Shown: piece by piece, positions 1,550 through 63,132 of the stretch | Layout of the letters: each line of letters begins with the position of its first letter | Numbering within the stretch: position 1 is the first letter of the stretch | Assembly: GCA_041908585.1 (NCBI GenBank) | Contig: JAYRFB010000199.1 | Location: forward strand, 88-64,087 | Origin: Candidatus Krumholzibacteriia bacterium | GTDB taxonomy: Bacteria; Krumholzibacteriota; Krumholzibacteriia; LZORAL124-64-63 | Length of the DNA stretch: 64,000 nt | Reading direction: 5' to 3' | Program-made: the position numbers and the translations under genes | Notes under the pieces: generated by a model | Told to the model about the DNA's origin: nothing | Database searches by the model: none | Seen by the model: the letters and a program-made list of their open reading frames with translations, nothing else

Positions 1550-1889
1550 CGCGGACCTCCTCGGGATGGGACGTAAACCGGTCCGTATCGCAAGACGGGG
1601 TTGGGCGAGCGAAAGCGGAGTATACTGGAGGGGTTGGAACTCCTACTATAAAGTGTGCTTTAGCTTGGGCTCCCTGAGCCACTTGCATGTCGAATAGTAA
1701 AATAATAGCGTATCAGAGCAAGAATAGCCGTCCACAGCCCTCCCAATCCGACGCTATTTCGTCCGTGTTCCGCCGCAAGGCGGGTGTTATCGTTCCGCCC
1801 GTGCCATGGCGGCCCCCGCGGCGGGGGGCCGGCCGACCCGCCCTGTGGTCGGCACGCGGACCGCCGCGCACACAGAAGGAGCCCCTTCG

Positions 1890-6527
<4,638 letters not shown>

Positions 6528-10200: not shown

Positions 10201-11124
10201 CAGCGAGACGAGCCCGCTCCTGTCCGTCAGCTCTTCCAGGCCCAGCAGGGGGTGCAGGTAGAGCAGTCGGCGCACGGGGCCCAGGTTGCGGCCGCCGCGG
10301 GGGTCGCGGGGGCCCTCGACGCCGAATTTCGGCTCGATCACGCGCAGCGAGTCGGCGCCCGCCTGGCGGCGCAACCCTTCCGGCGTCAGCTCGCCGAACC
10401 AGCCGGCACCGGCGATGTGCAGGGTTCCGCTTGTCGGGTGCCTGACCGCGGCGTAGGCGGGTCCCGGCGGCAGCCCCGCGACCGGCGCCGCCACGCCGGC
10501 GTCCGTCCGCCCGGGATCGGGCAGGCGCAGCAGCCCGGAATCCGTGGCGATCAGGAGGTCGCTGCCGTGCCAGGCCAGCGAGTAGACCTGCCCGGCGCCG
10601 GCCGGCAGCGCCACCGGCCACCAGCTGGCACGGGACCAGACGCCGATGCTGCCACCCTGCACCAGCACGGCCAGGGCGATACCTCCGTCGCCATCGCGAC
10701 CGGCGAGCAGCTCGAATGTCTCGTTGCCCGGGCCGACGGCCGACCAGTCCGGCAGCGGGTGCCAGCGCCCGCCTTCCAGGAACGAGACGCGCACCGGCGT
10801 CGACTGCGCCATGGCCCAGACGCGGCCGGCATCGTCCACCGCCACATCCCGCTGCCAGCTGACCGGCAGCCCGTGGTTCGTGTCGTGCAGGAGCCAGCTC
10901 GCGCCGTCGTAGCGCATCATCCCCGCGCGCGTGGAGAACCAGACACGGCCGCTGTCGTCCTGGGCCACGCCCATGACCACGCCGGTCGGCGCGCCATTGG
11001 CCTCGGTGTAGTGCGTGAAGGGCCAGATCGCCGCCCGACCGGCGCCGGCCAATGCGGTGAGGCCGAGCGTGACGAGCACGGCGGCCAGGGCTGCACGGCG
11101 GGGTGGGGCGATGACGGGAGGCAT
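7240..11124 (-). CDS. Hybrid sensor histidine kinase with a periplasmic two-component-regulator beta-propeller / Y_Y_Y domain, plus PAS, HisKA, HATPase and receiver domains
   Basis: Start chosen at MPPVIAPPRRAALAAVLVTLGL (signal/TM). Propeller repeats are present (GLxxxxVxAxxxDxxGxxW). A second TM is PWFAVVASVALAGLVWLVV. The H-box is GGIAHDFNNLL, the G-boxes are DEGCGIP...GSGLGLA, and the receiver motif is LLVMDDDEPIRDLL...DLTVPGGMGG. Confidence 0.85.
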   Translation of the reverse strand: MPPVIAPPRRAALAAVLVTLGLTALAGAGRAAIWPFTHYTEANGAPTGVVMGVAQDDSGRVWFSTRAGMMRYDGASWLLHDTNHGLPVSWQRDVAVDDAGRVWAMAQSTPVRVSFLEGGRWHPLPDWSAVGPGNETFELLAGRDGDGGIALAVLVQGGSIGVWSRASWWPVALPAGAGQVYSLAWHGSDLLIATDSGLLRLPDPGRTDAGVAAPVAGLPPGPAYAAVRHPTSGTLHIAGAGWFGELTPEGLRRQAGADSLRVIEPKFGVEGPRDPRGGRNLGPVRRLLYLHPLLGLEELTDRSGLVSLGLSDIMVDREGSVWIANYRGTSKLASRHLRSYGTADGLLKEEVSAVLQRADGSIVLGHEGGLSFPGTHTTALPLTGPGKEWSRAMDLHEHPAGVLWAAMDRSGLARLDPDGAVTWAGEADGLEGPVYAVVHDRDGRLWAGTSEGLYRREGRRFERIHLHDRGQGRQPVIRRLLVTADGALLVATTTEGVFRVKEGRIEHWPGDEAAGNASSFEMIETDDGRVWVGTSSGLCLVRDGRLESTAAPDPVIDDPVYAIARDRKGRFWFGTGAGALVWDGRELRRYGVADGLAGAEVNRDALLCDTEGRVWIGTNRGVTVFDERLQSRGAGELPLWLEEIRLDGERHDPAGELEIPPSAHELVVRFCAPAYRDEARLRFSTHLEGGDAGWSTPAENPARSVSYTHLRPGHYRLHVQAVDIDGRRSAVASTGRIVVVPPLHARPWFAVVASVALAGLVWLVVSFAQGRRYARRLAAEVAQRTRELALSEAAVRAESERLSAVLASISDGVVALDGDATIRLANPAAAAVLGRSDAELAGLPLEACLPGLGEAARRALDAAAPPGVGTARAHFEYLLRGGEHGQAILECAAAPLAAGGRADGLVVAFRDTTERRRAEQAAVRTQKLESLGVLAGGIAHDFNNLLTVILGNASLLGLDCTERQRLPLEQIVAASGRARRLTAQLLTFARGGAPQKRLVDLRDLVREAAELATAGTNVIPSLELADDLWFAEVDAGQVEQVISNLLINARQAMPDGGHVRVAARNAALTDGRADAGRQVEISVRDEGCGIPPADLDRIFEPYFTTKKEGSGLGLAISHSVVARHGGTLRVTSEPGRGSEFTLLLPASREQPRSRREDATRTADGGLRLLVMDDDEPIRDLLVRLLTRQGHAVTAVADGEAALRAWAEAAGGDRPFRAAIMDLTVPGGMGGREAMARLRELDPGACAIVTSGYSHDPVMADHRRYGFAAKLPKPFAGDDVARALRAALDGDGAGR

Positions 11125-11258
11125 CGTGGCTGCGCGGGGTGGGGGTGTTTGTCCTGTTCCCGCGACGTTGGCGCGGTTGAAAGTTGCCGACCAGGATACC
11201 ACATCCAGGCTTGCCTGCCCATGGCCATCGCGCCGGCGCGACTCCCAGCCACGAACAA

Positions 11259-11282
11259 GGGCCGCCCCCCGGGGGGCGGCCC
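11259..11282 (-). terminator. Perfect 24-nt GC palindrome downstream of the 11310 stop; possible terminator
   Basis: GGGCCGCCCCCC/GGGGGGCGGCCC. On the minus strand it is followed by cTTGTTCGT. Confidence 0.4.
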
Positions 11283-11309
11283 TCCTGGCTGCCGTTTGGC
11301 TGCGGGGAA

Positions 11310-12011
11310 CTAGCGGAACAGCCCCTTGACCGCGCCCCACGACGAGGTCTCCTCGGAGACCGTGCAGTTGATGTGCATCGTCATGGTCATGACGTTGCCC
11401 CAGGTCCCGAACTGCGCCGAGGCCGAGGCCGGGCCGCAGCTGCCGTCCAGGAACGCGGGATAGGTGGCCGGGATGCTCGCGAACGGCGTCTCACCGACAC
11501 CGCTGCCGTTGGCGATGGCGAAGGTCAGCAGGCACCCGTTGGTGAACTCGCCCGAGGTGTTGCCGTTGACCACCGAGGCGACCGGCGTGCTGACGCCGCT
11601 GATCATCAGGTGCTGCACCGTCGAGATCAGCGTGGTCGTGCCCAGCGTGGCGGTGCCGTCACCCCACGGCCAGCCGCCGGCGAAGAAGGTCAGCGTGCCG
11701 CCGTTGAACGTGGAGGTGTAGACCACGGTGCCGTTGCCGCCGACGCGGTTGTCGACGACGCTGAACGCGCTGTTCTCGGTGGCGCAGCTCAGCTCCCACT
11801 GCGTTCCCAGCGCGGAGCCGTCCCAGGACTGGGCGTGCAGGACGTGGGGCAGGCCGCTGTTGACGCCGGAGCGCCAGGTCGAGGCGCGGCCGGTCAGGAG
11901 CTGGCCGCCCAGGTCGGTGGATGTGTAGGTGCCGGTGATGGGGTCCGCCTGCGCCGTGAGGGGCAGCAGGGCGAGCGAGGCCACGGTGGCGATCGTCAGC
12001 AACTTCTTCAT
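11310..12011 (-). CDS. Secreted protein of unknown function (233 aa)
   Basis: GGAGG RBS precedes ATG 12011. The signal peptide is MKKLLTIATVASLALLPLTAQA. GC3 is strong and the protein ends ...TVSEETSSWGAVKGLFR. Confidence 0.7.
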   Translation of the reverse strand: MKKLLTIATVASLALLPLTAQADPITGTYTSTDLGGQLLTGRASTWRSGVNSGLPHVLHAQSWDGSALGTQWELSCATENSAFSVVDNRVGGNGTVVYTSTFNGGTLTFFAGGWPWGDGTATLGTTTLISTVQHLMISGVSTPVASVVNGNTSGEFTNGCLLTFAIANGSGVGETPFASIPATYPAFLDGSCGPASASAQFGTWGNVMTMTMHINCTVSEETSSWGAVKGLFR

Positions 12012-26103: not shown

Positions 26104-26632
26104 GCGGCCGGCGATCACGCCGCAGATGAAGGTGGGCCAGCTCCTGGACGCGTACCCGGAGCTGGAGGAGGCGCTCATCGCCATCGCGCCGGAGTTCGCG
26201 CGCCTGCGCAACCCGGTGCTGCGCAGGACCGTGGCGCGGGTGACGTCGCTGCAGCAGGCGGCGCAGGTGGGGGGCGTCCCGCTGGGAGAGCTGATCACGC
26301 GCCTGCGGGAGACGGCCGGGGTCGAGGAGGCCTACGTCGCCGGTGGTGAGGCCGCGGAAGCGTCGGGAACCGGGACCGGCGAGCGCCCCGACTGGCTCCA
26401 CGGCGTGGCCGTCGTCTCGCGCGATGATGCGCGCGCCGATATCGCCGCCGGCGAGCACCCGCTGCCGCGGGTGATGGCGGCCGTGGGCGCGCTCAAGGCG
26501 GGCCAGGCGCACCTGCTGGTGACGCCGTTCGTGCCGGCGCCGCTGCTGGACAAGGCGAGGGCGATGGGCCTGCAGGTGTGGACCGAACAGGCCGGGCCGC
26601 AGGAGTTCCGCAACCTGATCGCGCGGGTCTAG
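26096..26632 (+). CDS. DUF1858-DUF2249 two-domain protein
   Basis: It overlaps the upstream gene by 8 nt. TPQMKVGQLLDAYPELEEALIAIAPEFARLRNPVLRRTVARVTSL is DUF1858-like. The C-terminus HPLPRVMAAVGALKAGQAHLLVTPFVPAPLL is DUF2249-like. Confidence 0.7.
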   Translation: MSERPAITPQMKVGQLLDAYPELEEALIAIAPEFARLRNPVLRRTVARVTSLQQAAQVGGVPLGELITRLRETAGVEEAYVAGGEAAEASGTGTGERPDWLHGVAVVSRDDARADIAAGEHPLPRVMAAVGALKAGQAHLLVTPFVPAPLLDKARAMGLQVWTEQAGPQEFRNLIARV

Positions 26633-55925: not shown

Positions 55926-56420
55926 TCAGCCGTCCAGCCGCCGGCAGTACGTGTACTTGGCGTCGCCCGGCGCGTAGAAGTCCGCGAACACTCCCGCCGT
56001 CGCGTAGCCGCTCCGCTCGTAGAAGGCGCGCGTGGAGGCGTACTGCGCCTTGCCGCTGGTCTCGGCGTAGAGCGCCAGGCCGCCGTTCTCCCGCGCGCGA
56101 CGTTCTGTCTCCCGCAAGAGGCGCCGGCCCAGTCCGGCGCCCTGGCCGGATGGGTGCACCGCGATCCAGTACAGGTCCCAGCTCACCGTCGAGCACGGCA
56201 CCCGGCCGTAGCAGCTGTAGCCCGCCAGGCGGCCCTGTCCGTCGTCCGCGAAGAGGAACTCGTAGCCGGCCGCGGCGCCGCGCGCCAGCGCCTCGGCCAC
56301 GAGCTCGGCCGCGATGCCGACCTCCTCGTCGCTGAAGTAGCCGGTGTCGCGCACCAGCCCGCGCACGGCCTCGACATCCGTGGGCCGCACCTGGTCGCGG
56401 AAGAGGATGGTGTCGCTCAT
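55926..56420 (-). CDS. GNAT-family N-acetyltransferase
   Basis: The acetyl-CoA motif IAVHPSGQGAGLGRRLL is present, followed by YERSGY. Confidence 0.85.
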   Translation of the reverse strand: MSDTILFRDQVRPTDVEAVRGLVRDTGYFSDEEVGIAAELVAEALARGAAAGYEFLFADDGQGRLAGYSCYGRVPCSTVSWDLYWIAVHPSGQGAGLGRRLLRETERRARENGGLALYAETSGKAQYASTRAFYERSGYATAGVFADFYAPGDAKYTYCRRLDG

Positions 56421-56456
56421 GTCGGTCAGGCTCCGGTCCGTTTCCCGTGGTAATGC

Positions 56457-57446
56457 TCAGCGCCGTGCCGTGGCGACGATGCGCGCGATGGCCTCGGCGA
56501 ACGGGATCCCTGCCCGCTCCAGCGCCGCGGCGAAGCCCGCGTCGGGCGACAGGCAGGGATTCGCGTTCACTTCGAGGATGAAGGGGCGGCCCTGCGCGTC
56601 GACGCGGAAATCCACGCGCGCCCAGCCCCGCAGGCGGAACAGGCGCCAGCAGGCCAGGGCCAGGCGCGTCATCTCGGCGGCCAGCGCCTCGTCCCCGGCC
56701 GGCAGGTCGAAGCGGCGCACGGTGTGGCGGTACTCGAACGAGTCCTCGTGCCACTTGGCCGCGTAGCCGACGATGCGCGGCTTGCCTTCGGGGAAGCCGT
56801 CGAAGGTGATCTCGGCCGGGGGCAGCACCTCGGGACCGTCGGGGCCGTCGAGCAGGCCCAGGTTGAACTCGCGGCCCTCGACGAACGCCTCCGCGAACCA
56901 CGGCGAGCCGGGCCGGCCCTCGCGGCGGGCCAGTTCGGCGCGGGCGGCAGCCGCGCCGCCGTCGACCACGGCGCCGTCGTCCATGCCCAGCGAGGCGTCC
57001 TCCCAGACCGACTTCACGATCCAGCGCGAATCCTGCCCGGCGCCCGGGTCGGCGGCGGCGTCGGCCAGCCCGTCGCCCAGCCAGTCGGGCGTGGGCAGCC
57101 CGGCCCGCCGCAGCAGCCCCTTGGCCAGCACCTTGTGGGAGGTGAGGAAGATCGCCTCGGCCGGGCATCCGGCCATCGGCACGCGCAGGGCCTCAAGCAC
57201 GCCCGGCGCCAGGTGGATGAGGCGCCCGTGGCCCTCCAGCCCCTCCACGAGGCTGAAGACCAGGTCCGGCGTGGCGCCACTGAGCGAGAAGGCCAGCGAC
57301 TCGAGGTCCAGGTCGCAGCCCCACGGCTCGACCACATGGCCCAGGGCGATGAGCGCTTCGCCCACCGCCTCGACCTGCACCAGGACGTCCATCTCGTCCG
57401 GCGCGGCGTCCGCCGGCACGCGGTTGTGCAGGATCACGATCCGCAT
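56457..57446 (-). CDS. ATP-grasp ligase (Ddl-like), paralogue 2
   Basis: Motifs: MRIVILHN at the N-terminus, DLVFSLVEG, WIVKSVWEDASLG, AEAFVEGREFNLGLL and FILEVNANPCLS. Confidence 0.8.
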   Translation of the reverse strand: MRIVILHNRVPADAAPDEMDVLVQVEAVGEALIALGHVVEPWGCDLDLESLAFSLSGATPDLVFSLVEGLEGHGRLIHLAPGVLEALRVPMAGCPAEAIFLTSHKVLAKGLLRRAGLPTPDWLGDGLADAAADPGAGQDSRWIVKSVWEDASLGMDDGAVVDGGAAAARAELARREGRPGSPWFAEAFVEGREFNLGLLDGPDGPEVLPPAEITFDGFPEGKPRIVGYAAKWHEDSFEYRHTVRRFDLPAGDEALAAEMTRLALACWRLFRLRGWARVDFRVDAQGRPFILEVNANPCLSPDAGFAAALERAGIPFAEAIARIVATARR

Positions 57447-57473
57447 GCGGCGGCGCCTTCCGTCAGGGAGGAC

Positions 57474-58466
57474 TCAGCGATGGGCCGGCGCGACCCTCGC
57501 GGCGGCCGACTCGACGATGCGCCCGATCAGCTCGTCGTACGGCAGGCCCGCCATCCGGCAGATGATCGGCAGGTCCGAGTGCCCGGGATGCAGCCCGGCC
57601 AGCGGGTTGAGCTCCATGAGCTGCGGCTCGCCGTGCGCATCGCAGCGCAGGTCCAGCCGGCCACCGTCGCGACAGCCCAGCAGCCTCCAGGCGGCCAGCG
57701 CCACCGCTTCGGCCTTCGCCACCACGGGATCCTGCGCGGTGACCAGGCGGTACTGCACGCGGTCCTCCCACAGTTCCTTGTTGGCGTAGGTGTAGGCGCC
57801 CGGCTCGGCGCGCTCGCCCAGGATCACCTCCATGGTGCCGACCACGCGCGCCGCGTCGCCCGTTCCGGTGATGCCGGTGGTCAGCTCGCGCCCCGGCAGG
57901 TAGGTCTCCACCAGCACGGGCTGCCGGAACCGCGCCAACAGCTGTTCGCAGGTGGCGCGCAACGCATCCGGCGAGCGCACCAGCGAGGCGCCGTCGACGC
58001 CCTTGCCCGTGCCCTCGGCCAGCGGCTTGCAGAACAGCGGATACGGAAGGTCCACGGCCGCGATGTCCGCCGGCGCGTGCACCTCGCGGAAATCGGGTGT
58101 CGGCAGGCCGCCGTCGCGCAGCACGCGCTTGGTCAGGCCCTTGTGCAGCGTCAGCGCCAGCACCAACGCATCGCTGAACGTGCAAGGGATGGCGTACGCG
58201 TCCAGCAGCGCCGGCACCTGGGCCTCGCGGGCGACGCCGTGCAGGCCCTCGGCGATGTTGAAGACCAGGTCCCAGCGATCGCCGGCGACCAGTCGCCCGG
58301 CCAGCGCCTTGACGTGGCCGATGCGGTCGGTCTCGTGGCCCAGCCGGCGCAGCGCCCCCTCGATGGCCTCGACCGTGTCGGGCTGGTCGAACTCCGCGGT
58401 CTCCTCCGCCGTGAAGCCCATCGCCAGGTAGTCGTCGCGCAGGTCGTAGGTCAGGCCGATCCTCAC
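57474..58466 (-). CDS. ATP-grasp ligase (Ddl-like), paralogue 1
   Basis: The GTG start overlaps the kamA stop (GTGA), with GGAGG 9 nt upstream. Motifs: VRIGLTYDL, DLVFNIAEG, YPLFCKPLAEGTGKG, VETYLPGRELTTGI and QLMELNPLAGL. Confidence 0.8.
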   Translation of the reverse strand: MRIGLTYDLRDDYLAMGFTAEETAEFDQPDTVEAIEGALRRLGHETDRIGHVKALAGRLVAGDRWDLVFNIAEGLHGVAREAQVPALLDAYAIPCTFSDALVLALTLHKGLTKRVLRDGGLPTPDFREVHAPADIAAVDLPYPLFCKPLAEGTGKGVDGASLVRSPDALRATCEQLLARFRQPVLVETYLPGRELTTGITGTGDAARVVGTMEVILGERAEPGAYTYANKELWEDRVQYRLVTAQDPVVAKAEAVALAAWRLLGCRDGGRLDLRCDAHGEPQLMELNPLAGLHPGHSDLPIICRMAGLPYDELIGRIVESAAARVAPAHR

Positions 58467-59596
58467 CAGGTCGCCTCCAGCGCGGCCTGGCCGCCCGGGC
58501 CATCCGGGTAGCGGTGGACGTGTCCCTCGTAGTTGCGCAGCAGCACGTCCGTGCCGTCGCGGCCGACCAGGTAATCCGGCTGCAGCGGGATCTTGCCGCC
58601 GCCGCCGGGCGCGTCGATGACGTAGGTCGGCACTGCGTACCCGGTGGTGAAGCCGCGCAGCCCGCGGATGATCTCCAGCCCCTTCTGCACCGTGGTGCGG
58701 AAGTGGGCCGAGCCCGAGATCGGGTCGCACTGGTACAGGTAGTACGGCCGCACCCGCATCATGAGCAGCGAGTGGACCAGGGATTTCATCACCGCCACGT
58801 CGTCGTTCACGCCCTTGAGCAGCACGGTCTGGCTGCCGAGCGGGATCCCGGCATCGGCCAGGCGGCGGCAGGCGGCGGCCGCCTCGGGCGTGCACTCGGC
58901 CGGGTGCAGGAAGTGCAGGCTCAGCCACAGCGGGTGGTGCCTGCGCAGCACCTTGACCAGCGCCGGCGTGATGCGCTGCGGCAGCACGGCCGGGACCTTG
59001 GTGCCGATGCGCACGAACTGCACATGGGGGATCTTCCGCAGTTCGCCCAGCAGGTAGTCCAGGCGCTCGTCGCTGAGCGTCAGCGGGTCGCCGCCGGACA
59101 GCAGCACGTCGCGGATCTCCGGGTGGCTGCGGATGTAGTCCAGCGCCGTGTCCCAGCGCTCGCGGCCCGGGCGCAGCTCGTCCTGCCCGACCACGCGCGA
59201 GCGCGTGCAGTAGCGGCAGTACGTGGCGCAGCGGTCCAGCACCAGGAAGAGCACGCGGTCGGGATAGCGGTGCACCAGGCCGGGAACGGGGCTGTGCCCG
59301 TCCTCGTCCAGGGGATCATCCGCCTCGCCGGGCATGCGCAGGAACTCGTTCTGCACGGGCACCACCGTGCGCCGCAGCCCGCAGTCGGGCTCGAACGCGT
59401 CCAGCAGGCTCATGTAGTACGGCGTCACCGCGACCGGCAGCAGCGAGCCGCAGCGGTCGAGCGCCGCCCGCTCCTCGTCGGCCAGTTCGAGCACGCGGGC
59501 CAGCTGCTCCGTCGTCCTGAACGAATGCCGGAGCTGCCATTTCCAGTCGTGCCAGTCGGCGTCCTTCACGTCCGGGAAGTGCGCGCGACGGAACAT
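58463..59596 (-). CDS. kamA: KamA-family radical SAM lysine 2,3-aminomutase
   Basis: Motifs: WHDWKWQLRH, LPVAVTPYYMSLLD, the CX3CX2C motif in CATYCRYCTRS, LLSGGDPL, and YYLYQCDPISGSAHFRT. The start at MFRRAHF is chosen from the GC3 drop upstream; ATG 59833 is an alternative. Confidence 0.85.
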   Translation of the reverse strand: MFRRAHFPDVKDADWHDWKWQLRHSFRTTEQLARVLELADEERAALDRCGSLLPVAVTPYYMSLLDAFEPDCGLRRTVVPVQNEFLRMPGEADDPLDEDGHSPVPGLVHRYPDRVLFLVLDRCATYCRYCTRSRVVGQDELRPGRERWDTALDYIRSHPEIRDVLLSGGDPLTLSDERLDYLLGELRKIPHVQFVRIGTKVPAVLPQRITPALVKVLRRHHPLWLSLHFLHPAECTPEAAAACRRLADAGIPLGSQTVLLKGVNDDVAVMKSLVHSLLMMRVRPYYLYQCDPISGSAHFRTTVQKGLEIIRGLRGFTTGYAVPTYVIDAPGGGGKIPLQPDYLVGRDGTDVLLRNYEGHVHRYPDGPGGQAALEATW

Positions 59597-59925
59597 GCGC
59601 GTGCGCGGACCGGTGCGGGGCAGCCGCCTGGCCAGGAGGTGTTCGAGCTGGATCGGAAGTGCGGGGATATTGGCTGACGCCGCGGAGGGATCGGGTTCGG
59701 CAACAAGCGACGGAGGGTCGTCGGGAGAGGCTCCCGCATCGACCTCCTGCAGGTTCCGGCCCGGCCCGGCCAGGGAGTCCAGGCGAGCGCTGAGTCGTGT
59801 CAAGGTCCGCCTCCGTGAGGACTGACCGTGATGCATGACCGGAGGGGGCTGGCGCCGCCGCCGGAACGTCGCCTGCGCCGGCGGGAGCCGGGCGGTGCCC
59901 TCCAGGGTCACATGACGACGCGCAG

Positions 59926-59953
59926 AAAATATGGCAAGTGGAACAAGTGTCAA
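59926..59953 (-). promoter_or_regulatory. Near-consensus sigma70 promoter upstream of the kamA operon
   Basis: On the minus strand: TTGACA (59953-59948), a 16-nt spacer, then TATTTT (59931-59926). Confidence 0.45.
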
Positions 59954-60011
59954 CCGCAATCGCCCGGATTCGTCGAAAATTCCCTCGCCAGGCGGACGAC
60001 GGTCGCTCCGT

Positions 60012-61079
60012 TCAGACGTGATTGCGGAGCATCAACTCGCGCGGGTGGGGGTTCAGGTAGACCTGGTCGCGGACGTAGGGGACCTCCAGCAGCTCGACGT
60101 AGTGGCGCAGCAGGGTCACCGGCACCACCAGCGGCACCAGGCCGTGGGCGTAGTCCTCGATCACGGCCAGCACCCGCTTCTGCTCGGCGTCCGTGACCCG
60201 CCCGCGCAGGTGTCCGGCGACATGCTGCAGCGCGTTGGCGTGCCGCCGGGGGGTGGCCAGCACGCCCAGCGCCTCCATGTAGAGGCCCAGGTAGCGGTCG
60301 CGGAACGCCGCCGGCGGCTCCTGGGCGATGCGGGCCACCAGGCGGCCCAGCTCCTGGTAGTGGCGCGGGCTGTGGGCCATCAGCAGGTACTTCTCGCGGC
60401 TGTGGAAGGCGACGATGCCGCCCCGCGCCCAGCGACCGGCGAACGCGTCCTTCACCCGGCGCCAGGCGAACAGGCGCTCGACGAAGTTCTCGCGCAGGCG
60501 GGCGTCCTCCAGCCGGCCCTCCTCCTCGACCGGCACGAGCGGGCAGGCGGCGGCGAAGGCCGCCGCGAACAGGCCCCGCCCGCCGCGCGCAGGCATCCCC
60601 TTGTCCGGGTAGACCTTCACCCGGAAGAGCCCGCAGCTGGGCGAGTTCTTCTTGAAGACGAAGCCGTCGAGGTCCTCGGCCGCCAGTTCGCGGACGCGGC
60701 GCCGGGACCAGGCGTTCATCGGCGCCGTCCAGTCGACACCCGAGCGCGGGGCCACCATCCGCGGGCTGTCCGCGTCGCCCTCCAGGCGGACCGACTCGCG
60801 GGGGATCGACATGCCCACCTCGACCTCGGGGCAGACCGGGACCAGCTCGCAGTACTGGGCGAGCGTGCCGGTCAGCCAGCGGTCGTGCTTGTGGCCACCG
60901 TCGAAGCGGACCTCCTGGCCGAGCAGGCAGGCGCTCACGCCGATGCGCAGCGGCGGCAACGGGTCGCCCGGCGAACGGTCGCGGGGCGGGAGGGGCGGGA
61001 CGGCGGGCATGCCTGTGCGGGGCACGAGGCCTCCGGGGTCGGGATCGGGCGTGGATACGGACTGGCGTTCGCGCGTCAT
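60012..61079 (-). CDS. DUF523-DUF1722 (YbgA-like) two-domain protein
   Basis: RIGVSACLLGQEVRFDGGHK...FKKNSPSCG matches DUF523. FHSREKYLLMAHSPRHYQELGRLV...HVAGHLRG matches DUF1722. The start could be ATG 61079 or ATG 61010. Confidence 0.8.
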   Translation of the reverse strand: MTRERQSVSTPDPDPGGLVPRTGMPAVPPLPPRDRSPGDPLPPLRIGVSACLLGQEVRFDGGHKHDRWLTGTLAQYCELVPVCPEVEVGMSIPRESVRLEGDADSPRMVAPRSGVDWTAPMNAWSRRRVRELAAEDLDGFVFKKNSPSCGLFRVKVYPDKGMPARGGRGLFAAAFAAACPLVPVEEEGRLEDARLRENFVERLFAWRRVKDAFAGRWARGGIVAFHSREKYLLMAHSPRHYQELGRLVARIAQEPPAAFRDRYLGLYMEALGVLATPRRHANALQHVAGHLRGRVTDAEQKRVLAVIEDYAHGLVPLVVPVTLLRHYVELLEVPYVRDQVYLNPHPRELMLRNHV

Positions 61080-61130: not shown

Positions 61131-61751
61131 ATGGCGCCGAAACCCAGATCCCAGCCCCCTGCCCGACGCCGACCGGGGGCCGCCCCGAAGCCGACTGTGC
61201 GGCCGGCCGGCGGGTCCGCGCCGTCGCGCCCTGCGTCGACGCCGCCTTCGGCACCGCCGTCGCCTCCTCCGAGGCCGGACCCGTCGCGCGAGGATTTCTC
61301 GATCACCAGCTGCGAGTGCGACGACTGCCGCGCCGCCTGCCGCACCGCGCCGGGCTGGTTCACGCCCCAGCAGATCCCCCGGCTGGCGCGGCACCTCGAC
61401 CTGTCGATCGACGAGACGTTCCGCCGCTACCTGGCGATCGGCGTCACGCACCTGGCCGACGGCACCCGGCGGCTGGGCGTGATGCCCCACAAGCTGCGGG
61501 ACGGCAAGAAGCCGGGCAGCCGCTGGACGCTGGCGGAGATCGCCGCGCCCGGCCGGTGCGTCTTCTACGACCGCGGCCGCTGTACGATCTACCCGGCCCG
61601 GCCCGACGAGTGCGCCCGGATGATGCATGACCGCGGCGATCGCACGTTGCGGATCCGGCGACGCATCGTCGAGAAGTGGACCGAGGCGGCGCTGGCGCCG
61701 TTCCTGGCGCTGGTCGCGGGCGCGGGGGGAAAGCGACCGCGGCGGCCCTGA
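61131..61751 (+). CDS. YkgJ-family (UPF0153) cysteine-cluster protein with a Pro-rich N-terminal region
   Basis: Motifs CECDDCRAACR and GRCVFYDRGRCTIYPARPDEC are present. The N-terminal roughly 55 aa are low-complexity, so the true start is uncertain. Confidence 0.6.
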   Translation: MAPKPRSQPPARRRPGAAPKPTVRPAGGSAPSRPASTPPSAPPSPPPRPDPSREDFSITSCECDDCRAACRTAPGWFTPQQIPRLARHLDLSIDETFRRYLAIGVTHLADGTRRLGVMPHKLRDGKKPGSRWTLAEIAAPGRCVFYDRGRCTIYPARPDECARMMHDRGDRTLRIRRRIVEKWTEAALAPFLALVAGAGGKRPRRP

Positions 61752-61791
61752 CAGCCCGGGGCGATTTCGGTATCAGAAAACAAGACTAACA

Positions 61792-61800
61792 TGCTATGAT
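61792..61800 (+). promoter_or_regulatory. Extended -10 element TGcTATGAT
   Basis: It lies in an AT-rich island 52 nt before ATG 61852. Confidence 0.3.
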
Positions 61801-61851
61801 TTCGTGTCCGTTCACCTTCCGGTCATTTCCCTGAACCGAGGAGTCCGGACC

Positions 61852-63132
61852 ATGCCCCGCACGACCCCTGATCCCCGTCGCCTCGCCCGCCTGCTGCCGG
61901 TACTCGCGGCGTTGTCCTGCGCCGGTCCGTCCGCGGCGCGGACCTTCACCTTCCCGCATATCATCGACCACCACGGTCGCGTCTCGAACACGCAGTTCAC
62001 CTTCGACACGTCGATGTTCATCACGTACACGGGTGCCGTGGCGTGCGTGGACGGAAGCCTCACCGACCAGCTGGTGCACGTGTACCTGTTCGATGACGAG
62101 GGCCGTCCCCTGACCAGCCTGACCGGCGACGACATCTGTGCTCCCTGTTCGGTCACCATCGGGGCCACCGATCGCTCGGCCAGCCTGAGCGTCGAGGCCG
62201 CGGCCGAGGCTGCCGGAGGCATGCCCAGCGTGCTCAGCGGCTTCGCGGTCGTGGTCGTCGAGGGCGACGATACGCCGAACGTCAACATCCAGGGCTACGT
62301 CGTCAATTCCCACACGAATGCCTTCGACCTGTCGGTGTTCGGATTCACGCCGGAGGAGGTCCGGGCGCCCGGCAACAAGACCGGCGCCTCCTTCCCCTGC
62401 GGCCGTGTGTTCAGCGTCGGGCGCATGCTGGCCACGCCCGGCGCCCCGTCCGACGCCCCGTACACCTTCGACACGACGATGTTCTTTTCCTACGCAGCCG
62501 GGCTGGCCGGCGAGCCCCCGGGGCCCGGCGCCACGGTCGAGACCTACCTCTTCGACGAGGCCACCGGCGAGTTGCTGGTCGATGCGATCGGCACGCCCGT
62601 CTGCAATCCCTGCGTGACCCCGCTGAGCCAGGCGGCGCCGAAGGCCTCCCTGCACCTGGGCGCCTTGCTGCCCGGCGGCGGCATCGTCTCGGCGGCGGTA
62701 TCGGCCGTCTGCGTGGTGAGCGGCGATGCGGGAAGCGTTGCGGCACAGGCATTCGTCGTGAACCGGCACACCTCGGCGCTGGATGTGAGCATCTTCGCGC
62801 CGGCATTCCGCGAGCTCAGCCCCGCGTTCGCCTCGTCGGTTCCCGGCGAGTCGGCCTCGCGCTTCGGCCTGCGCAACTTCCCGAACCCGTTCAACCCGCG
62901 CACCACGTTCGCCTATTCGCTGTCCGCTCCCGGCAATGTCCGGATCGATATTCACGATGCCGACGGCAACCTGGTCCGCACCCTCGTGCAGGAGGGCCAG
63001 GACACGGGTGCACACGAGGTGACCTGGGACGGGCGCGCCGATAATGGCCGCCGCCTGCCGTCGGGCGTCTACTTCGGCCGGATCGAGACGCGGGAAGGGA
63101 CCGAGACTCGCAAGGTCACGCTGGTCCAGTAG
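61852..63132 (+). CDS. Secreted protein with two tandem copies of an unrecognised CxPC domain plus a C-terminal FlgD-Ig/T9SS-type domain
   Basis: GAGGAG RBS. Signal peptide LARLLPVLAALSCAGPSAA. There is an internal duplication: FTFDTSMFITY/YTFDTTMFFSY, VYLFDDEGRPL/TYLFDEATGELL, ICAPC/VCNPC and YVVNSHTNAFDLSVF/FVVNRHTSALDVSIF. The tail is FPNPFNPRTTF...VTWDGRADNGRRLPSGVYF. Confidence 0.8.
   Translation: MPRTTPDPRRLARLLPVLAALSCAGPSAARTFTFPHIIDHHGRVSNTQFTFDTSMFITYTGAVACVDGSLTDQLVHVYLFDDEGRPLTSLTGDDICAPCSVTIGATDRSASLSVEAAAEAAGGMPSVLSGFAVVVVEGDDTPNVNIQGYVVNSHTNAFDLSVFGFTPEEVRAPGNKTGASFPCGRVFSVGRMLATPGAPSDAPYTFDTTMFFSYAAGLAGEPPGPGATVETYLFDEATGELLVDAIGTPVCNPCVTPLSQAAPKASLHLGALLPGGGIVSAAVSAVCVVSGDAGSVAAQAFVVNRHTSALDVSIFAPAFRELSPAFASSVPGESASRFGLRNFPNPFNPRTTFAYSLSAPGNVRIDIHDADGNLVRTLVQEGQDTGAHEVTWDGRADNGRRLPSGVYFGRIETREGTETRKVTLVQ

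Follow-up and report, generated by a model that had tools for sequence, protein, structure and literature searches.

A conserved kamA cassette with two Ddl-fold ATP-grasp ligases and a GNAT: a candidate pathway for an acetylated beta-lysine conjugate

Beta-lysine enters lysine fermentation and a few antibiotics. The closest known system to the one considered here is AblA/AblB of methanogens and some bacteria, which makes N-epsilon-acetyl-beta-lysine. Another acetylated solute, N-acetylglutaminylglutamine amide (NAGGN), involves Ngg, a single GNAT-RimK-type fusion (TIGR03103) that works with an amidotransferase; we know of no aminomutase in NAGGN synthesis. Here, we analysed a four-gene cassette within a stretch of 64,000 nucleotides from a Candidatus Krumholzibacteriia bacterium (contig JAYRFB010000199.1; the whole stretch is referred to as the window; G+C about 72%). 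The cassette comprises kamA, encoding a putative lysine 2,3-aminomutase, two genes for ATP-grasp ligases of the D-alanine--D-alanine ligase (Ddl) fold, here termed AG1 and AG2, and a gene for a GNAT N-acetyltransferase. As in AblA/AblB, an AblA/KamA-clade aminomutase and an acetyl-CoA-dependent GNAT are found in one operon, however, the cassette has two Ddl-derived ATP-grasp ligases between them. On balance, we favour the view that the four genes form one pathway operon and that its product is a small-molecule conjugate of beta-lysine. The first-pass annotation of this DNA knew of no characterised pathway with this gene set, and full-text literature searches likewise returned no published description of the gene set and no paper on its product.

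The cassette and its control elements are arranged as follows:

59926..59953, minus strand: candidate sigma-70-like promoter 5' of kamA (TTGACA, 16-nt spacer, TATTTT), from a consensus scan
59810..59814, minus strand: Shine-Dalgarno sequence GGAGG, 6 nt 5' of the kamA TTG start, read from the sequence and in agreement with gene call P0121
58463..59803, minus strand: kamA, lysine 2,3-aminomutase-type radical S-adenosylmethionine (SAM)/pyridoxal phosphate (PLP) enzyme, 446 aa, from NCBIfam, the alignment to structure 2A5H and gene call P0121
59708..59722, minus strand: D-D-P-P-S motif within kamA (GAC GAC CCT CCG TCG), with CCTCC at 59716-59712 and an internal GGAGG at 59747-59743
57474..58466, minus strand: AG1, Ddl-fold ATP-grasp ligase, 330 aa, GTG start, from Pfam (Dala_Dala_lig_C), AlphaFold2 (AF2) and Foldseek
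56457..57446, minus strand: AG2, second Ddl-fold ATP-grasp ligase, 329 aa, ATG at 57446, from Pfam
55926..56420, minus strand: GNAT N-acetyltransferase, 164 aa, ATG at 56420, from Pfam (Acetyltransf_1, _7, _10)

The open reading frames (ORFs) of the window, with families assigned by Pfam and NCBIfam, bear out the tight minus-strand packing in the order kamA, AG1, AG2, GNAT that had been described before: the GTG of AG1 (58466-58464) overlaps the kamA stop codon TGA (58465-58463) as GTGA, and gaps of 27 nt and 36 nt separate the AG1 stop from the AG2 ATG and the AG2 stop from the GNAT ATG, respectively. The family identities stood as well, that is, a KamA with CATYCRYCTRS and YQCDPISGSAHF, two Ddl-like ATP-grasp proteins and a GNAT. 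The AG1 product (330 aa) is identical to the separately called protein P0001. In contrast, the upper boundary of the first-pass annotation, which placed the kamA start at ATG 59596, was off by 207 nt. A separate gene call, P0121, gives a protein of 446 aa that starts at TTG 59803 and matches the window KamA with 100% identity and coverage; ATG 59596 is replaced by CTG in a 94%-identical relative; and the in-frame extension 5' of this ATG bears a motif that is kept in 65 of 68 homologues. We therefore assign kamA to 58463-59803 with a TTG start. As the start had been misplaced, the conserved N-terminal element described below had been missed. The promoter-like site has 10 of 12 consensus matches, where 0.1 are expected in shuffled sequences, and its sequence also occurs in the 94%-identical relative (L081).

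An AG1-specific peptide-pattern scan of one genome per species identified at least 581 species with a confirmed AG1 relative. Locus counts given in the following refer to the best 80 loci of these at least 581, which were fetched via AG1 alone and analysed by tblastn with the four window proteins. KamA was located upstream of AG1 in 63 of 69 evaluable loci, AG2 downstream in 66 of 70, and GNAT downstream in 46 of 53. The complete collinear order KamA-AG1-AG2-GNAT was present in 50 of the 80 loci from about 10 phyla, and the four genes hence co-occur as a conserved unit. KamA and AG1 are kept at 58-75% identity across about 10 phyla, AG1 being the most conserved gene of the cassette (58-70% across phyla). 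This gene arrangement is far beyond chance, and chance adjacency is in practice excluded; as judged from the sequences, the four genes are one operon and a conserved unit. At least several hundred species carry the cassette; they include members of the Desulfobacterota, Planctomycetota (among them Kuenenia), Bacteroidota, Krumholzibacteriota (labelled Krumholzibacteria), Acidobacteriota and Fibrobacterota; further organism labels were Lentisphaerae, Spirochaetes, KSB1, Marinimicrobia and Alphaproteobacteria. The carriers are mostly anaerobic bacteria, with Desulfosarcina variabilis, Desulfatitalea alkaliphila, Virgifigura deserti and Desulfovibrio mangrovi as cultured examples. No match to AG1 was obtained by tblastn in a plasmid collection, and none of the four proteins matched the anti-phage defence models of PADLOC.

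A profile search against 1.84 billion representative proteins yielded 1631 clusters at E<=1e-30, many of which contain proteins of about 650-730 aa with two ligase domains. Fusion proteins of AG1-AG2, KamA-AG1 and a CxxCxxCC protein with AG1 were confirmed by Pfam. Taken together, the existence of these fusions supports a direct coupling of KamA with AG1 and of AG1 with AG2. When all neighbouring ORFs with a minimum of 90 aa were clustered across the 80 loci, the only further conserved neighbours were a sigma-54 enhancer-binding protein, a deacetylase that may be fused to the GNAT, and the CxxCxxCC protein; with no other widely shared neighbour, the cassette appears to be self-contained.

KamA comprises the Pfam domains Radical_SAM and LAM_C. 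In NCBIfam, it scored 495.9 bits on the AblA model (TIGR03820), about 30 bits short of the cut-off of 525.4, compared to 433.7 on the glutamate 2,3-aminomutase model (cut-off 650), 389 on the arginine 2,3-aminomutase model and 257 on the EpmB model (cut-off 369.3). KamA matches only positions 3-360 of the 417 positions of the AblA model, and it falls just under the cut-off because the last approximately 57 positions, including the Zn-binding cysteines, are absent. An ungapped alignment to lysine 2,3-aminomutase (LAM) from Clostridium subterminale (PDB 2A5H; 468 bits) showed that the equivalents of C125, C129, C132, R134, D293, D330 and K337 are retained, that the position of C268 is occupied by Asp and that the C-terminal cysteine triad C375/377/380 is missing. 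KamA accordingly lacks the C-terminal Zn/multimerisation domain of clostridial LAM and consists of a disordered N-terminal tail of about 70 aa and the LAM core. We take D293 and D330 to bind the epsilon-ammonium group of lysine, R134 to bind its carboxylate and K337 to bind PLP. In glutamate 2,3-aminomutase, Asp293 and Asp330 are reportedly replaced by Lys and Asn (Ruzicka and Frey). As both Asp residues are kept in KamA and its score lies below the cut-off, a glutamate 2,3-aminomutase was ruled out. The placement of KamA among AblA and EpmB rests on model scores and specificity residues, by which KamA is predicted to be a lysine-type 2,3-aminomutase, nearest to AblA and far from EpmB, in line with its first identification as a lysine enzyme.

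EpmB was ruled out for KamA by its score and by the lack of a linked efp gene. The first-pass annotation had argued against a role in modification of elongation factor P (EF-P), and this view gained support since neither the 64-kb window nor 88 related loci contained an efp gene. Among kamDE, kdd, efp and epmA, none was linked to the cassette, save one EpmA-like gene in one locus. This gene (L054, positions 679-1641) occurs in a metagenome-assembled genome of Desulfatibacillum, is of the class II lysyl-tRNA synthetase (LysRS) type and 39% identical to E. coli EpmA, and lies 4 kb upstream of the cassette with a lon gene in between. The host therefore probably has a separate system for EF-P beta-lysylation.

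AG1 and AG2 are paralogues with 31% identity to each other and about 25% identity of each to Ddl. In Pfam, only Dala_Dala_lig_C was matched by either, and their scores on the Ddl family model (NF002378; cut-off 243) were 132 bits for AG1 and 93.5 bits for AG2. The AF2 model of AG1 (predicted local distance difference test score, pLDDT, 89) found Ddl structures as top Foldseek matches with template-modelling (TM) scores of 0.75-0.8. We mapped 80 AG1 and 70 AG2 homologues onto E. coli DdlB, the sequence of which was verified against 2DLN/1IOV. K97, K144, E180, E187, K215, R255, D257, E270 and N272 (DdlB numbering) are invariant in all of them. With all catalytic residues invariant, AG1 and AG2 are predicted to be active ligases. 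Residues of the substrate pocket, in contrast, are systematically changed. In AG1, Y216 is replaced by Glu (E231), L282 by Asp (D298) and S150 by Thr (T150), and the N-terminal part has an insert of 13 aa; the residues that bind the donor's amino group (E15) and the acceptor's carboxylate (S281) are retained. The acidic residues at the Y216 and L282 positions are near-invariant among AG1 homologues and would fit a cationic substrate. In AG2, Y216 is replaced by Trp (W232), G276 by Cys (C298), S281 by Ala (A303) and L282 by Gly (G304), A151 stands at the S150 position, and E15 is kept in only 50% of the homologues. As the D-Ala-binding positions are altered throughout and the scores lie below the cut-off, true Ddl was ruled out, and neither protein should be a D-alanine--D-alanine ligase, although public databases carry them under this very name. 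The ligases are of the Ddl type rather than the RimK type, which speaks against the concern raised at the outset that they might be true Ddl or RimK orthologues. We also noted a protein of 980 aa (P0443) that combines leucine-rich repeats with a C-terminal AG1-like ATP-grasp domain.

The GNAT aligned over its full length with PDB 2R7H (about 50% identity, 146 bits), a structure deposited as 'putative D-alanine N-acetyltransferase'. In Oleidesulfovibrio/Desulfovibrio, the protein from which 2R7H was derived (P0241) is itself encoded in a series of genes for a sigma-54 activator, KamA, AG1, AG2 and GNAT, and by sequence the cassette GNAT is orthologous to it. The first-pass annotation had invoked the logic of both AblA/AblB and NAGGN synthesis. 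The former does not extend to the GNAT, which is not AblB-like and gave no match to the AblB model (TIGR03827) at E<=1e-3. The latter proved to be a loose analogy, given that the ligases are Ddl-type and that the Ngg model was matched neither by the GNAT nor by any other of the four proteins; TIGR03104 was not matched by any of the four either, and no amidotransferase recurred among the neighbours in the 80 loci. The best NCBIfam match of the GNAT was RimI, with 37.5 bits at a cut-off of 86.4.

The best single clue to the nature of the product comes from an accessory gene. In 26 of the 80 loci, the GNAT is adjoined by, and sometimes fused to (e.g., in Desulfosarcina), a protein of about 585 aa that consists of an N-terminal GNAT-like domain (about 260 aa) and a C-terminal PF00850 domain. 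Representative positions are:

L002, 8988-10745: accessory GNAT-like/deacetylase protein
L053, 9022-11277: accessory GNAT-like/deacetylase protein
L088, 10018-11760: accessory GNAT-like/deacetylase protein
L091, 9629-11386: accessory GNAT-like/deacetylase protein

The PF00850 domain scored 222-256 bits against solved acetylpolyamine amidohydrolases and about 201 bits, over a shorter stretch, against HDAC6; only the acetylpolyamine amidohydrolases align with the whole domain. These enzymes deacetylate small aminoalkyl amides. The presence of an amidohydrolase-like deacetylase in the cassettes therefore points to a small molecule with an acetylated alkyl-amine as product, as far as can be judged by sequence relationship. 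The N-terminal GNAT-like domain was considered as a copy of the cassette GNAT, which was rejected as no significant similarity was found. The window cassette has no deacetylase gene.

Based on these features, we propose the following pathway. KamA would turn L-lysine into beta-lysine. AG1 would then phosphorylate a carboxylate with ATP and form an amide bond involving beta-lysine, and AG2 would form a second amide bond on the larger intermediate. AG1 is placed before AG2 because of the KamA-AG1 fusion, the acidic AG1 pocket, and the loss of the donor-amine ligand together with a roomier pocket in AG2. Finally, the GNAT would add an acetyl group to a free amine, with a terminal alkyl-amine (for instance, the epsilon-amine on beta-lysine) as the most plausible site. 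This would yield an N-acetylated di- or tripeptide with beta-lysine or a short beta-lysine oligomer. In about one third of the genomes, the amidohydrolase-like enzyme of the cassette may take the acetyl group off again, which would allow an adjustable charge or turnover. The compound would likely serve in stress, osmotic or charge homeostasis, as a solute of the cytoplasm or a cation of the polyamine kind, and less likely as an antibiotic. The sequences establish which genes are present, that their catalytic residues are intact, that KamA has a lysine-type pocket, that the gene order is conserved and that fusions exist; we infer in which order the enzymes act, which partner substrates they use, where the acetyl group is placed and what the product does. 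The earlier idea of an acetylated beta-lysine amide or peptide was strengthened by the deacetylase in 26 of 80 loci and by the KamA-AG1 and AG1-AG2 fusions, while the product itself and its part as an osmolyte stay at the level of inference.

The extension gained by the corrected kamA start carries a second conserved feature. In every cassette KamA, the N-terminus is extended by a variable, acidic stretch for which disorder is predicted, and in the AF2 model of the window KamA residues 1-48 show a pLDDT below 50. Within this extension, 65 of 68 homologues share the motif [DE]-[DE]-E-P-P-[S/G/D]. CCU encodes the first Pro in 56 of 66 loci, compared to a share of 11.9% among the 1966 Pro codons of these genes, and in genomes with at least 60% G+C it does so in 28 of 30 loci against a background of 4%; the binomial probability of this bias is about 1e-41, a value that ignores shared ancestry. 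The Glu codon is free to vary (GAA in 35, GAG in 28) and the second Pro codon uses all four codons. The conserved string GAR-CCU-CCN contains CCUCC, the complement of the Shine-Dalgarno sequence GGAGG, and a GGAGG is often found 5-26 nt upstream of it. Of 43 loci, 41 have the motif 33-93 nt from the start codon, 10 of them at exactly 36 nt, while anything from 22 to more than 160 residues separates it from the enzyme core. The motif is under constraint at both the protein and the nucleotide level, and the fixed CCU codon along with a distance held to the start codon rather than to the core suggests a role in mRNA or translation.

In minimum free energy folds, CCUCC was paired with a GGAGG in 40 of 54 loci, with the start-codon Shine-Dalgarno sequence in 16 and with an internal GGAGG in 25. 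Synonymous mutation in silico raised the accessibility of the Shine-Dalgarno sequence in 8 of 43 loci, the window not being among them. A universal sequestering of the start-codon Shine-Dalgarno sequence was rejected on the basis of these counts. The fold of the window kamA leader was no more stable than that of shuffled sequences (z = -0.58), and Rfam gave no match to the leader, neither at gathering thresholds over the whole window nor at E<=1 for positions 59550-60020. The element could be an RNA element of the anti-Shine-Dalgarno type, the Glu-Pro-Pro string could act as a decoding or polyproline (EF-P-type) pause, or it could be a peptide docking motif; docking of the tail on the KamA core was rejected due to the low pLDDT of residues 1-48. 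A gating of kamA by the element could operate at the mRNA level or at the level of decoding.

Somewhat more tentatively than the small-molecule product itself, we suggest that the cassette makes an undescribed class of beta-lysine metabolite, a beta-lysyl peptide or short oligomer with an N-acetyl group that a dedicated amidohydrolase removes reversibly, and that this compound serves as a widespread cytoplasmic solute or polyamine surrogate of anaerobes, with kamA gated by the GAR-CCU-CCN element. If the proposed pathway is true, it would be a third, ATP-grasp-dependent conserved route of beta-lysine and provide a new metabolite for environmentally dominant anaerobes; it would also give a function to 2R7H, an uncharacterised structure, and correct the systematic misnaming of the ligases as D-alanine--D-alanine ligase. 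The cassette is accessible in the cultured Desulfovibrio mangrovi and in the Oleidesulfovibrio/Desulfovibrio relative behind 2R7H. In a bolder variant, the acidic KamA tail may be a covalent carrier on which the product is assembled, in analogy to LysW.

Several points weigh against a small-molecule beta-lysine product of this kind. The product and the substrates of AG1, AG2 and GNAT are predicted here from the genes. Some fusions could be artefacts of assembly or gene calling at the overlapping stop and start codons. No transporter, regulator or stress gene is consistently linked to the cassette in the 80 loci. The sample sources include freshwater, peat and soil, and no pointer to salt was found in the neighbourhoods or habitats; we therefore regard the osmolyte role as rather doubtful. 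In addition, recognition of a protein instead of a small molecule could be behind the Glu-Pro-Pro motif of the KamA tail, the best family matches of the GNAT are RimI-like and hence of the protein acetyltransferase kind, albeit far below the cut-off, and a MurC-like ligase directly follows the GNAT in one Krumholzibacteria lineage. Other explanations of the cassette were considered as well.

In the first of these, the ligases would build a beta-lysine dipeptide or side branch for peptidoglycan, with the GNAT and the deacetylase editing the exposed amine, modelled on the cross-bridge-forming D-Asp ligase of the ATP-grasp type and on D-Ala-D-Lac ligases. Ddl is indeed the nearest family in both sequence and fold. 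The only hint of a link to the cell wall is found in L083-L085, which represent the one Krumholzibacteria lineage mentioned: a MurC/Mpl-like Mur ligase of 462 aa with the domains Mur_ligase, _M and _C (10547-11935) begins 4 nt downstream of the GNAT, with a YkuD L,D-transpeptidase gene (2111-2623) located upstream. However, no mur, ddl, pbp or other wall gene recurs in the 80 loci, the D-Ala-binding residues are replaced in both ligases, and the deacetylase resembles a cytoplasmic small-molecule enzyme. We regard such an envelope function as improbable.

A similarly low probability is assigned to a modification of proteins or peptides, in which the ligases would put beta-lysine on, or cross-link, a protein, the adduct being capped by the GNAT. 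Possible targets are a translation factor or the acidic Glu-Pro-Pro tail of KamA itself, the latter as LysW-like carrier or graspetide-like substrate. The near-invariance of the motif in a disordered tail and the RimI-like matches of the GNAT would fit, as would microviridin clusters, which combine two ATP-grasp ligases with a GNAT. Yet the ligases are neither of the RimK nor of the graspetide type, gaps of 27 and 36 nt are too small for a precursor gene, no efp is linked, and three loci keep the cassette without the motif. Moreover, the CCU codon in 85% and the spacing to the start codon instead of the core suggest the mRNA or translation role discussed above, and the deacetylase is of the small-molecule type.

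It is likewise improbable that the cassette produces an antibiotic-like metabolite, i.e., a streptothricin-like oligomer or peptide of beta-lysine, for which acetylation would provide self-protection and the deacetylase would act as activator. Streptothricins have beta-lysine chains and GNAT-based self-resistance, bialaphos is protected by an acetyl group that is later removed, and the GNAT has weak matches to streptothricin (STAT) and phosphinothricin acetyltransferases. However, there are no genes for an exporter, scaffold or tailoring enzymes and no plasmid copy was found, and a minimal set that is kept at such identity (KamA, AG1) over about 10 phyla and at least 581 species is unlike the patchy and fast-evolving clusters of such compounds. 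Finally, that the genes are unrelated neighbours, with KamA serving lysine fermentation or EF-P and the ligases being ordinary Ddl paralogues, would suit the generic database names of all four (lysine 2,3-aminomutase, D-alanine--D-alanine ligase, GNAT) and can practically be dismissed in view of the gene order kept across phyla, the overlap of kamA stop and AG1 start, the fusions, the scores below the Ddl and EpmB cut-offs, the altered Ddl substrate residues and the lack of linked kamDE, kdd, efp or epmA apart from the one EpmA-like gene beyond lon.

Two further genes accompany the cassette in some of its carriers. A CxxCxxCC protein (PF03692, YkgJ/FliB family) of about 170 aa is encoded between kamA and AG1 in 13 of the 80 loci, with fusions to AG1 in L012 and P0372, and may assist the radical-SAM enzyme as a metal-cluster partner. 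The window cassette has no such gene. Non-orthologous members of the family occur nearby at 61131-61751 (plus strand) of the window and at 11926-12282 of L086. In 8 of the 80 loci, a gene for a sigma-54 enhancer-binding protein was present, and in several Desulfobacterota, including Desulfovibrio, this response regulator is located directly upstream of kamA on the same strand. A strict sigma-54 -24/-12 promoter pattern upstream of kamA was found in only 5 of the 80 loci. The positions are:

L014, 6514-7035: CxxCxxCC protein
L012, 6500-8044: CxxCxxCC protein, AG1 fusion
L089, 3874-5310: sigma-54 response regulator upstream of kamA
L091, 3857-5293: sigma-54 response regulator upstream of kamA
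L041, L048, L065-L067 and L080: likewise with the sigma-54 response regulator upstream of kamA

In the window, a gene with DUF523 (2-thiouracil-desulfurase-like) and DUF1722 (60012 to about 60974, minus strand) ends 58 nt before the promoter-like site; this arrangement with kamA is shared only by the close relatives L081 and L082 and not by other phyla. Elsewhere in the window, an ORF of 1573 aa (1806-6527, plus strand) resembles by eye an enzyme of the pyruvate:ferredoxin-oxidoreductase type, which would fit an anaerobic host. A match to the nhaA-I riboswitch (Rfam RF03057; 7041-7101, minus strand; 45.5 bits at a gathering score of 37) is positioned upstream of an ORF that looks like a small membrane protein, far from the cassette. 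A single tRNA-Leu(CAA) is encoded at 26455-26547 (plus strand), and the C-terminus of an ORF at 61627-63132 (plus strand) resembles by eye a sorting domain of the FlgD_ig/type IX secretion system (T9SS) type; in the close relative L081, the corresponding place upstream of the CxxCxxCC gene is taken by FlgD_ig proteins.

When compared to the known systems, the cassette departs from AblA/AblB also in that its GNAT is non-AblB, its KamA lacks the C-terminal Zn domain and has a motif-bearing tail, and an amidohydrolase is an optional member. With Ddl and VanA, AG1 and AG2 share the fold and the residues for ATP, Mg and phosphoryl transfer, and the mechanism is therefore presumably formation of an acyl-phosphate followed by that of an amide; the scores, however, reach about half of the family cut-offs, Y216, L282 and S150 are replaced, in AG2 also G276, S281 and E15, and the genes are tied to kamA instead of mur genes. 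EpmB/EpmA is similar in that a C-terminally truncated KamA-family aminomutase supplies beta-lysine for an ATP-dependent amide ligation, but the ligases of the cassette are ATP-grasp enzymes and not LysRS-like, and some hosts have a separate EpmA. NAGGN synthesis by Ngg/AsnO resembles the proposed pathway in yielding an acetylated dipeptide solute by means of a GNAT and an ATP-grasp ligase. The pairing of deacetylase and GNAT in 26 of 80 cassettes recalls the acetylation and deacetylation of polyamines by SpeG-type GNAT and acetylpolyamine amidohydrolase, but the cassette enzyme, which is absent from the window, carries the additional GNAT-like domain (about 260 aa) and in some cases forms a fusion with the GNAT, and its substrate would be a derivative of beta-lysine instead of a classical polyamine. 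Microviridin clusters likewise have a pair of ATP-grasp ligases and a GNAT in one operon, however, their ligases are graspetide/RimK-like and act on a ribosomal precursor peptide, whereas the cassette has Ddl-like ligases, no precursor gene and an aminomutase. By sequence, the cassette belongs to none of the Ddl, EpmB, AblB, Ngg and graspetide systems, and its ligases display the invariant residues and the fold of the ATP-grasp superfamily. The cassette, with a gene set that has no description in the literature searched, would be a variant within the pathways for beta-lysine-derived metabolites.

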